Shown: positions 39,313 to 40,605 of the stretch, piece by piece
Numbering within the stretch: position 1 is the first letter of the stretch
Layout of the letters: every line of letters begins with the position of its first letter
Source of the DNA: Escherichia phage EF3-1
Strand: one strand, 5' to 3'
Length of the DNA stretch: 50,066 nt
Sequence record: PQ571291
Translations under genes and position numbers: made by a program
Notes under the pieces: generated by a model
The model's database searches: none
Seen by the model: only the letters and a program-made list of their open reading frames with translations
Told to the model about the DNA's origin: nothing

Positions 39313-39924
39313 ATGGATAAAATTACCATTTGGGGTCAGACTATAAACCTGTTTCTCGGCACTCGCCGCGTGGCAATCTTTGACTTCGACGGAACACTGA
39401 GTGACGGCTCAAAACGTCTTCACCTGCTACCGACGAAAGATTTGCACTTGACGGAAAGCTGGTCTGAGTTCAACCGCGCGGCAATATTTGACAATCCTAT
39501 CCGTAGTACGATTGATGTGATGAACTCTATGTTTGCCGCTGGGTATCATGTGATCATTTTAACCGGGCGAAGCGATGAGGTTCGTTACGCATCTGAGTTA
39601 TGGCTTAAGCATCACGGCGCGCGATATGATTACTTAGTCATGAGGCCGCATACCGACAACCGCAAAGACACGGTAATGAAAGAAGAGGCGGTGCGAGCGA
39701 TCGGCATTGATAACATTCTGGCGGCCTGGGATGACTCACCGCAAATTATTCCATTATTCCGATCGCTTGGAATAACCACTTACGCTGTAGTTGACTATGG
39801 CGATAACGTTCACGATCATTTAAAATCTCATGGCGTAGATGAGGTTTGCAATCATGAACCATCTGAGCCGCTACCGCCATTTGGCGATAAAATATGCATT
39901 AAGTGCAAGGAGTTATTAAAGTGA
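39313..39924 (+). CDS. HAD-superfamily hydrolase (putative nucleotidase/phosphatase)
   Basis: HAD motif I FDFDGTL, motif II ILTGR, C-terminal acidic motif region. Confidence 0.7.
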   Translation: MDKITIWGQTINLFLGTRRVAIFDFDGTLSDGSKRLHLLPTKDLHLTESWSEFNRAAIFDNPIRSTIDVMNSMFAAGYHVIILTGRSDEVRYASELWLKHHGARYDYLVMRPHTDNRKDTVMKEEAVRAIGIDNILAAWDDSPQIIPLFRSLGITTYAVVDYGDNVHDHLKSHGVDEVCNHEPSEPLPPFGDKICIKCKELLK

Positions 39925-40031
39925 ACCTGTACGAATTTATTGCAGCGCATCCGGTATTAACGGTTATCATCCTGTTAATCATCAATCACACCATCATCAA
40001 TGTGGCAAAATTATTTTTAGGGAGATACTAA
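39921..40031 (+). CDS. small hydrophobic protein (36 aa, GTG start, not in ORF track)
   Basis: GTG overlapping HAD stop with SD AAGGAG 9 nt upstream; TM-like PVLTVIILLIINHTIINV. Confidence 0.4.
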   Translation: MNLYEFIAAHPVLTVIILLIINHTIINVAKLFLGRY

Positions 40032-40032
40032 C

Positions 40033-40605
40033 ATGAAAACAGCTATCGTTTTAAACGGTGCACCAGGCGCAGGAAAAGACACTATCGGATGCATCCTGGC
40101 TGACACTTACGAACATGTAGCGCTACGCAGCTTCAAAGCGCCAATGTTTGAGATTGCCCGAGCAATCCTGGGTGAGGCTAATTTCGAATATTTCATGTTC
40201 TTGTATGAGGACCGTCGCTACAAAGAAGAGCCAGCGTCAATCCTGAACGGTAAAAGCCCACGCCAGTTTATGATCTGGATTAGCGAAGAAGTAATCAAGC
40301 CTCAGTTCGGTAATCGCTTCTTCGGTATGCGAGCAGAAAGCAAGGTGAAAGAGTCGCACTCCCTTTCGGTATTTACTGACGGTGGATTCAAAGATGAGAT
40401 CCTGCAAATGATTGAAGGTGATATCCAGGTCAAGCTATGCCGCATCCATCGCAATGGTTGCAACTTCGATAATGACAGTCGAGACTATATCTACCTTGAT
40501 GATATGATCGGAGTTAACGGTTATCAGGAGTGTGATTTCTTCTCTGTTGAGGGTCATCCTGAAATTACCGCTCAGCACATAGCCGCCACGTTCATCAATA
40601 AATAG
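40033..40605 (+). CDS. deoxynucleoside monophosphate kinase-like P-loop kinase
   Basis: Walker A LNGAPGAGKDT and NGKSP motif resembling T4 gp1 dNMP kinase; SD GGGAGA. Confidence 0.65.
   Translation: MKTAIVLNGAPGAGKDTIGCILADTYEHVALRSFKAPMFEIARAILGEANFEYFMFLYEDRRYKEEPASILNGKSPRQFMIWISEEVIKPQFGNRFFGMRAESKVKESHSLSVFTDGGFKDEILQMIEGDIQVKLCRIHRNGCNFDNDSRDYIYLDDMIGVNGYQECDFFSVEGHPEITAQHIAATFINK

Follow-up and report, generated by a model that had tools for sequence, protein, structure and literature searches.

A coupled HAD phosphatase and dNMP kinase as a probable nucleotide-pool module of T1-like coliphages

Escherichia phage EF3-1 (sequence record PQ571291; 50,066 nucleotides, analysed here over the full length and referred to as the window) has a complete T1-like genome of 50 kb (Tunavirus, Drexlerviridae), in which a gene for a HAD-family phosphatase, a short hydrophobic open reading frame (ORF) and a gene for a P-loop kinase follow one another. 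We consider it likely that the two enzymes constitute a nucleotide-pool module, with the phosphatase probably acting on 3′-phosphates and the kinase on deoxynucleoside monophosphates (dNMPs). All three ORFs, delineated beforehand in a first-pass annotation made from the letters of the sequence, were recovered on the plus strand with the same coordinates (Table 1). At the DNA level this three-ORF region shares 91–94% identity with its counterparts in over 60 sequenced genomes of coliphages and Shigella phages, and the matches of the remainder of the genome fall in the same T1-like group.

For the evolutionary analysis we used two samples. The window and 13 close relatives (14 sequences) served for the ratio of nonsynonymous to synonymous polymorphism (pN/pS), for the start of the small ORF and for an indel in the phosphatase gene, whereas the genomic context was surveyed over 80 viral loci encoding a relative of the window kinase. 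Read in frame, the HAD core had a pN/pS of 0.09, the small ORF one of 0.08 and the kinase one of 0.03, indicating purifying selection, as compared to 1.3–5.9 when the same three ORFs were read in the wrong frames.

The first-pass annotation had recognized a HAD hydrolase by its FDFDGTL motif, which our analysis bore out and narrowed down to a phosphatase domain of the type found in polynucleotide kinase-phosphatase (Pnkp). The Pfam family HAD_PNKP (PF25109) matched at 60.3 bits (curated cut-off 27.6) over profile positions 3–141 of 143, and hhalign aligned the HAD family with the T4 Pnkp phosphatase at a probability of 97.7% (E 1.4e-12). By fold as well as by profile the Pnkp phosphatases were the nearest relatives of the protein, solved Pnkp phosphatase domains being the closest in fold. 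The catalytic residues are D24, D26, R35, T84/R86, D115, K118 and D140/D141, of which D24, D26, R35, R86, D115, K118, D140 and D141 are invariant or nearly so in the HAD family. Likewise, the equivalents of T4 Pnkp D165, D167, R176, R213, D254, K258, D277 and D278 are all retained; mutagenesis by the Shuman laboratory reportedly identified D165, D167, R176, R213, D254, D277 and D278 as essential for the T4 phosphatase. The protein also matched phrog_415 (5.1e-67). It contains the Pnkp-type phosphatase domain and no kinase domain, and the name "polynucleotide kinase" used for it in the databases is therefore wrong.

Two features set the protein apart from T4 Pnkp. A conserved, family-specific insert follows motif I (residues about 36–60) and adds about 18 residues relative to T4 Pnkp, at the position where HAD enzymes carry their caps. 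Moreover, the protein ends in an optional carboxy-terminal tail with a Cys/His pattern, which reflects a 78-nt indel; 7 of the 14 close sequences, among them the window, have this tail. The tail is under purifying selection (pN/pS 0.07), and its Cys/His pattern recurs in homologues that are 55–60% identical and is duplicated in one of them (P0138). This pattern would be compatible with a possible zinc knuckle, and the confidence of the structure model over the tail was low to moderate.

Among the HAD homologues, a 181-aa protein of Shigella phage vB_SsoS_008 annotated as "kinase" (P0095) has AELR in place of LTGR in motif II and WSIS in place of WDDS in motif IV, and is probably an inactive or decaying copy. 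At two loci (L074, 3510–4082; L080, 3522–4094) the HAD frame extends 94 nt beyond the start codon of the kinase, which may reflect an error in sequencing or a variant that is frameshifted or extended.

The kinase carries the P-loop GAPGAGKDT at residues 9–17 (G9–T17, with the lysine at K15) and an NGKSP motif at residues 72–76. Conservation across the family was judged on an alignment of 50 homologues, in which G14, K15 and D16 of the P-loop are invariant together with N8, Y58, R77, S84, E85, K89, D116, G118, F119, E122 and the D148-S149-R150 triplet; the window kinase retains every one of the invariant residues. Its likeness to T4 gp1, noted in the first-pass annotation, was confirmed by the PHROGs profile phrog_139 ("deoxynucleoside monophosphate kinase"), which matched the window kinase (1.1e-45) and T4 gp1 (2e-65) over the same profile span. 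In the fold search the solved gp1 structure was the nearest, ahead of other P-loop kinases. Searches of Pfam and NCBIfam yielded no significant match for the kinase and a phmmer search of the PDB sequences did not recover T4 gp1, so that the identification came solely from PHROGs, the fold search and the literature. The family is large, with 5,484 cluster representatives in a profile search and about 1,400 phage records.

The closest characterized relatives are deoxynucleoside monophosphate kinases (DNKs) of other phages. R1DNK of phage Rao1 aligns with the window kinase over the full length at 42% identity (E 4e-47), its Lys15 corresponding to K15, and the DNK of phage KarlJaspers is 45% identical (E 2e-53). 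In vitro, R1DNK phosphorylates dAMP, dGMP, dCMP and dTMP in an ATP-dependent manner, and the dATP level during infection is moderately reduced when it is deleted (10.1101/2024.12.20.629578). R1DNK also triggers the Kongming defence (KomABC) through a kinase step towards dITP, which the K15A mutant does not do, and other phage DNKs including that of KarlJaspers likewise trigger KomABC (10.1101/2024.12.20.629578). We infer that the window kinase is a broad-specificity dNMP kinase, the activity having been shown for the 42%-identical R1DNK.

The two genes behave as one unit. In 75 of the 80 loci the kinase gene has a HAD_PNKP gene upstream of it on the same strand, and in 25 loci the HAD stop codon and the kinase start codon overlap, often by 4 nt and mostly as ATGA; elsewhere, a stretch of 50–2072 nt with unrelated small ORFs lies between the two. 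Natural phosphatase–kinase fusions also exist as three rare clusters (P0219, P0351 and P0245) with a homologous linker, encoded on phage contigs of 45–60 kb. These fusions were recovered from the protein collection, and a scan of the viral contigs revealed no close relatives of P0219.

The pair is furthermore associated with a third gene, which encodes a metallophosphoesterase-like "DNA repair exonuclease" of phrog_704 with about 380 aa. In 23 of the 80 loci, as well as in Rao1, this gene is found directly upstream of the HAD–kinase pair, and next to the HAD–kinase fusion genes it is found directly downstream. By eye, the window protein shows the calcineurin-type motifs DLH, GDFLH, GNHD, HGH and GHWHH as well as an amino-terminal segment resembling a helix-turn-helix; it had no Pfam match and no match among PDB sequences. 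A 386-aa gene beside the fusion genes, considered as an RNA ligase, was rejected as such, being the phrog_704 metallophosphoesterase that has its orthologue in the window. Two more distant kinase relatives (about 43% identical) are found in nucleotide-metabolism clusters, one comprising the small and large subunits of ribonucleotide reductase (RNR) followed by the kinase, the other an RNase T-like exonuclease, the kinase, an NT5C-type HAD protein, ThyX and RNR.

T1-like phages have no DNA polymerase and no genes for the synthesis of deoxynucleoside triphosphates (dNTPs) of their own, and in SA32RD, a close relative that has been annotated in full and has the customary T1 gene set, there is no DNA polymerase, ligase or nucleotide-synthesis gene. 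T1 and TLS reportedly break down the host DNA and reuse its nucleotides (PMC11447400). In such a setting the kinase would use ATP to convert the 5′-dNMPs of the degraded host chromosome to the diphosphates (dNDPs), which the nucleoside diphosphate kinase (NDK) of the host would turn into dNTPs for phage DNA synthesis. The HAD protein would be a phosphomonoesterase that stands alone and belongs to the Pnkp/Dmp branch within the HAD superfamily. It would be co-produced with the kinase, as a rule through translational coupling and now and then as a fusion, and would most likely strip 3′-phosphates from the nucleotides or DNA ends that arise in DNA breakdown, thereby feeding the route from 5′-dNMP to dNDP. 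That the HAD protein works in the same pathway as the kinase is a point that we only infer. We favour 3′-phosphate removal because the HAD core is Pnkp-like and because Rao1, whose HAD protein is 57% identical, shows rising dAMP and sensitivity to Kongming; accordingly, the T1-type enzyme does not appear to deplete 5′-dAMP as the deoxynucleotidase Dmp of phage T5 does. The recycling of host nucleotides, which the first-pass annotation had put forward for the pair, gains support from the reuse of host DNA by T1 and TLS (PMC11447400), from the RNR, ThyX and exonuclease neighbours and from the association with phrog_704.

Several observations weigh against this reading. The hhalign alignment of the kinase family with T4 gp1 covers only the amino-terminal residues 1–76, LNGKSP included (probability 66%), and the characterized R1DNK is only 42% identical to the window kinase. 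Deletion of R1DNK carries no fitness cost in the laboratory (10.1101/2024.12.20.629578), and the module is therefore not essential there. The source of the 3′-phosphate substrates is hypothetical, since the known or suspected nucleases of the pathway usually leave 5′-phosphates. Finally, T5 Dmp, a proven 5′-dNMP phosphatase, shares with the HAD protein both phrog_415 and the insert after motif I, so that a 5′-nucleotidase role is a possible one.

Such a role would make the HAD protein a Dmp-like partner of the kinase, i.e. a 5′-deoxynucleotidase akin to T5 Dmp that shapes the dNMP pool or keeps it clean, for instance by removal of dAMP, dIMP, dUMP or further dNMPs that are unwanted, and thereby limits the activation of nucleotide-sensing defences of the Kongming type, which hijack the phage kinase. 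T5 Dmp matches phrog_415 from end to end (3.6e-57), and in an hhalign comparison (probability 67%, 69 columns) it pairs with the HAD protein in the region of motif I and in the insert. Moreover, Dmp homologues co-occur with DNKs (10.1101/2024.12.20.629578), and one distant kinase relative precedes an NT5C-type HAD nucleotidase. Rao1, however, encodes its HAD protein directly upstream of its DNK and is nonetheless sensitive to Kongming, its infection raising dAMP 2–3 fold; a 5′-dNMP phosphatase next to a dNMP kinase would also run a futile, ATP-burning cycle unless the specificities of the two differed. We regard the Dmp-like role as unlikely, and did not accept the HAD protein as a plain T5 Dmp orthologue, given the insignificant pairwise similarity and the Rao1 phenotype. 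The natural fusions suggest a further variant, in which phosphatase and kinase form an obligate bifunctional complex with a novel division of labour. It would either re-route nucleotides from the 3′- to the 5′-form, turning 3′-phosphorylated products of breakdown into dNDPs, or edit the pool, the phosphatase selectively breaking down dNMPs that are deaminated or non-canonical in some other way, such as dIMP and dUMP, and the kinase charging the canonical dNMPs. To us such a complex seems distinctly unlikely; were its pool-editing version true, the HAD protein would serve to counter the kind of nucleotide-based immunity that takes advantage of the phage kinase.

The pair might also be a split Pnkp, with the HAD protein removing the 3′-phosphate and the P-loop protein phosphorylating the 5′-OH of broken RNA or DNA, which a host ligase would then seal, counteracting nucleases whose cuts have 3′-phosphate and 5′-OH ends. 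Pfam, profile and fold all place the HAD protein among the Pnkp phosphatases, and the existence of the fusions fits with this idea, in particular as mammalian PNKP has the same phosphatase–kinase domain order; the phosphoesterase of Clostridium Pnkp is in addition of the metallophosphoesterase class, to which the gene linked to the pair belongs. Nevertheless, the pair contains no Pnk-type 5′-OH polynucleotide kinase domain and the characterized member of the kinase subfamily is a dNMP kinase. The genome encodes no RNA or DNA ligase, neither the large ORFs of the window left without assignment nor the complete annotation of SA32RD having revealed one, and the distant kinase relatives sit with RNR and ThyX genes. 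End repair, which the first-pass annotation had already ranked as the less supported alternative, is thus weakened by the identity of the kinase, the missing ligase and the RNR/ThyX contexts, and we hold it to be very unlikely. It is in our view still more improbable that the two enzymes are mere neighbours in the early-gene region and lack any functional link. Such independence would agree with the unrelated small ORFs that lie between the genes in most loci and with the Rao1 escape mutations, which point to a separate promoter for the DNK. It is at odds with the order and strand being kept in 75 of the 80 surveyed loci even where the flanks differ, with the stop/start overlaps, and with three independent fusion clusters sharing a homologous linker.

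The small ORF, which is set between the two enzyme genes of the preferred nucleotide-pool module, has a different standing. Its longest mechanical version starts with a GTG at 39903 and encodes 42 aa; we preferred the start at 39921 because all 13 close relatives have ATG or GTG there, each overlapping the HAD stop codon. Among the variable columns, 15 of 22 are at the third codon position, and the annotation of phage LeonhardEuler lists the ORF as a coding sequence. It was seen only in the window and the 13 close relatives, which form one Tunavirus subclade, and is absent from 66 of the 80 loci. The first-pass annotation was right in seeing a GTG-start ORF with a good Shine–Dalgarno (SD) sequence here. 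The ORF is real and translationally coupled; it is a lineage-specific insert and does not belong to the conserved module.

T1 holds a 164-aa HNH endonuclease-like gene in the same slot. In the DNA alignment the small ORF matches the 5′ part of this gene in frame and position (locus L003, 3504–3998), and another locus (L048, 3780–4004) presents a chimeric intermediate between the two. The shared frame and position, together with this intermediate, raise the possibility that the small ORF is what remains of an HNH homing-endonuclease gene and is now maintained. The slot that separates the HAD gene from the kinase gene is a hot spot for insertions: in loci L018–L058 it contains one to eight small ORFs that differ between lineages and span 50–2072 nt, among them a recurrent single-pass membrane peptide of 60–74 aa (e.g. 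MLTFILIAIVLILYVCGAFLMRALLKEADADDKD...). The 36-aa membrane peptide of the window would be a lineage-specific passenger that keeps the coupling while standing outside the enzymatic module.

The unit is bounded by a strong RNA hairpin on either side, and terminators are annotated at both equivalent sites of SA32RD. A sigma-70 consensus scan of 38300–41300 revealed no promoter above chance inside the unit, and a terminator consensus scan of the same interval nothing above chance inside it. The latter relies on T-runs and missed both flanking hairpins, as these have none.

Table 1 Features of the phosphatase–kinase region and associated elements in the window.
Feature	Coordinates	Strand	Details
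RNA hairpin, just 5′ of the HAD gene	39240–39292	+	Minimum free energy (MFE) −20.7 kcal/mol, z −4.85; unit boundary
HAD phosphatase gene	39313–39924	+	203 aa; FDFDGTL at residues 23–29
HAD core, stand-alone Pnkp-type phosphatase domain	39313–39846	+	Residues 1–178
Optional carboxy-terminal Cys/His tail and stop codon	39847–39924	+	Residues 179–203, about 26 residues; C-x-H...C-x-x-C
36-aa hydrophobic ORF	39921–40031	+	GTG start overlaps the HAD stop as GTGA; SD sequence AAGGAG at 39907–39912, 8 nt upstream
Predicted dNMP kinase (DNK), T4 gp1 fold, T1-type subfamily	40033–40605	+	190 aa
Hairpin, 3′ of the kinase gene	40622–40657	+	MFE −23 kcal/mol, z −5.9; unit boundary
Metallophosphoesterase-like "DNA repair exonuclease"	24331–25482	+	383 aa; phrog_704, 5e-157; 14 kb from the pair

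Other ORFs of the window encode a 95-aa DUF3850/ASCH-like protein (37409–37696, plus strand), a 543-aa DUF3987 protein listed as "DNA helicase" in PHROGs (27480–29111, minus strand) and a DUF7180 protein situated two ORFs 3′ of the kinase gene (40884–41228, plus strand). All three were devoid of any look of a ligase.

At the level of annotation, the phosphatase and dNMP kinase pair of T1-like coliphages is largely known already, as it has been there, with annotations, from the T1 genome onwards. A study of TLS treats it as a polynucleotide kinase plus a dNMP kinase (PMC11447400), and the KanT1 paper describes it as a frequent neighbour of an exonuclease gene and reads it as boosting the nucleotide supply (PMC13164509). 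A paper on retron Eco2 proved irrelevant, as it mentions Drexlerviridae and polynucleotide kinase appears there merely as a laboratory reagent. New in the present work are the renaming of the phosphatase, the confirmation of both proteins at the level of the fold, the evidence of how strongly the two genes are coupled and, in rare cases, fused, the exonuclease gene as a third associated member, the optional Cys/His tail and the status of the small ORF. The renaming matters in practice: in hundreds of Drexlerviridae genomes the HAD gene goes by the name of "polynucleotide kinase", and in many the true kinase beside it is left as "hypothetical". The kinase is the single input of the phage's own to the dNTP supply, and its relatives are a known trigger of Kongming abortive infection. 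The phosphatase, tightly coupled to the kinase and occasionally fused to it, is the one uncharacterized enzyme of the module; knowing what it acts on would reveal the way in which T1-like phages channel host DNA into DNA of their own, and whether it modulates nucleotide-sensing defences.

Compared with known systems, the kinase shares with T4 gp1 (PDB ID: 1DEK, 1DEL) the PHROG and its span, the GKD-T P-loop and the LNGKSP segment aligned by hhalign. The two are only 13% identical, and gp1 has an insertion of about 50 residues; by eye, the PGA and DGG of the T1 type correspond in gp1 to KR, within the P-loop, and to a DTR motif. T4 gp1 acts on hydroxymethyl-dCMP (hmdCMP), dGMP and dTMP. R1DNK, unlike T4 gp1, accepts all four canonical dNMPs. 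The HAD protein resembles the phosphatases of T4 Pnkp and bacterial Pnkp1 (PDB ID: 1LTQ, 5UJ0, 4XRP) in keeping all equivalents of their catalytic residues. It differs from them in standing alone without a Pnk-type kinase domain, in its extra insert and optional Cys/His tail, and in having no ligase partner in the genome.

With the 5′-deoxyribonucleotidase T5 Dmp, an anti-Kongming factor, the HAD protein has in common phrog_415, a DxDGT..HR motif, the insert region and the co-occurrence with a phage DNK. Their pairwise similarity is insignificant (BLASTP E 0.04) and T5 Dmp, in contrast to the window protein, gives no Pfam HAD_PNKP match. T5 Dmp is also expressed before and separately from the T5 DNK, and it depletes 5′-dAMP, whereas Rao1 with its T1-type HAD protein is not protected from Kongming.

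The closest known system is the gp57/gp58 pair of Rao1, a HAD "polynucleotide kinase" and R1DNK (Zeng et al., bioRxiv 10.1101/2024.12.20.629578), which has the same gene order, with an orthologous HAD protein and kinase that are 57% and 42% identical, respectively, to those of the window. Rao1 is a 44-kb relative outside Tunavirus, in which the pair directly follows the phrog_704 exonuclease gene, with a gap of only 49 nt and no small ORF. In the window, by comparison, the pair is located in the early left arm, 14 kb from the exonuclease gene, the phosphatase carries the Cys/His tail, and the 36-aa ORF lies between the two genes.

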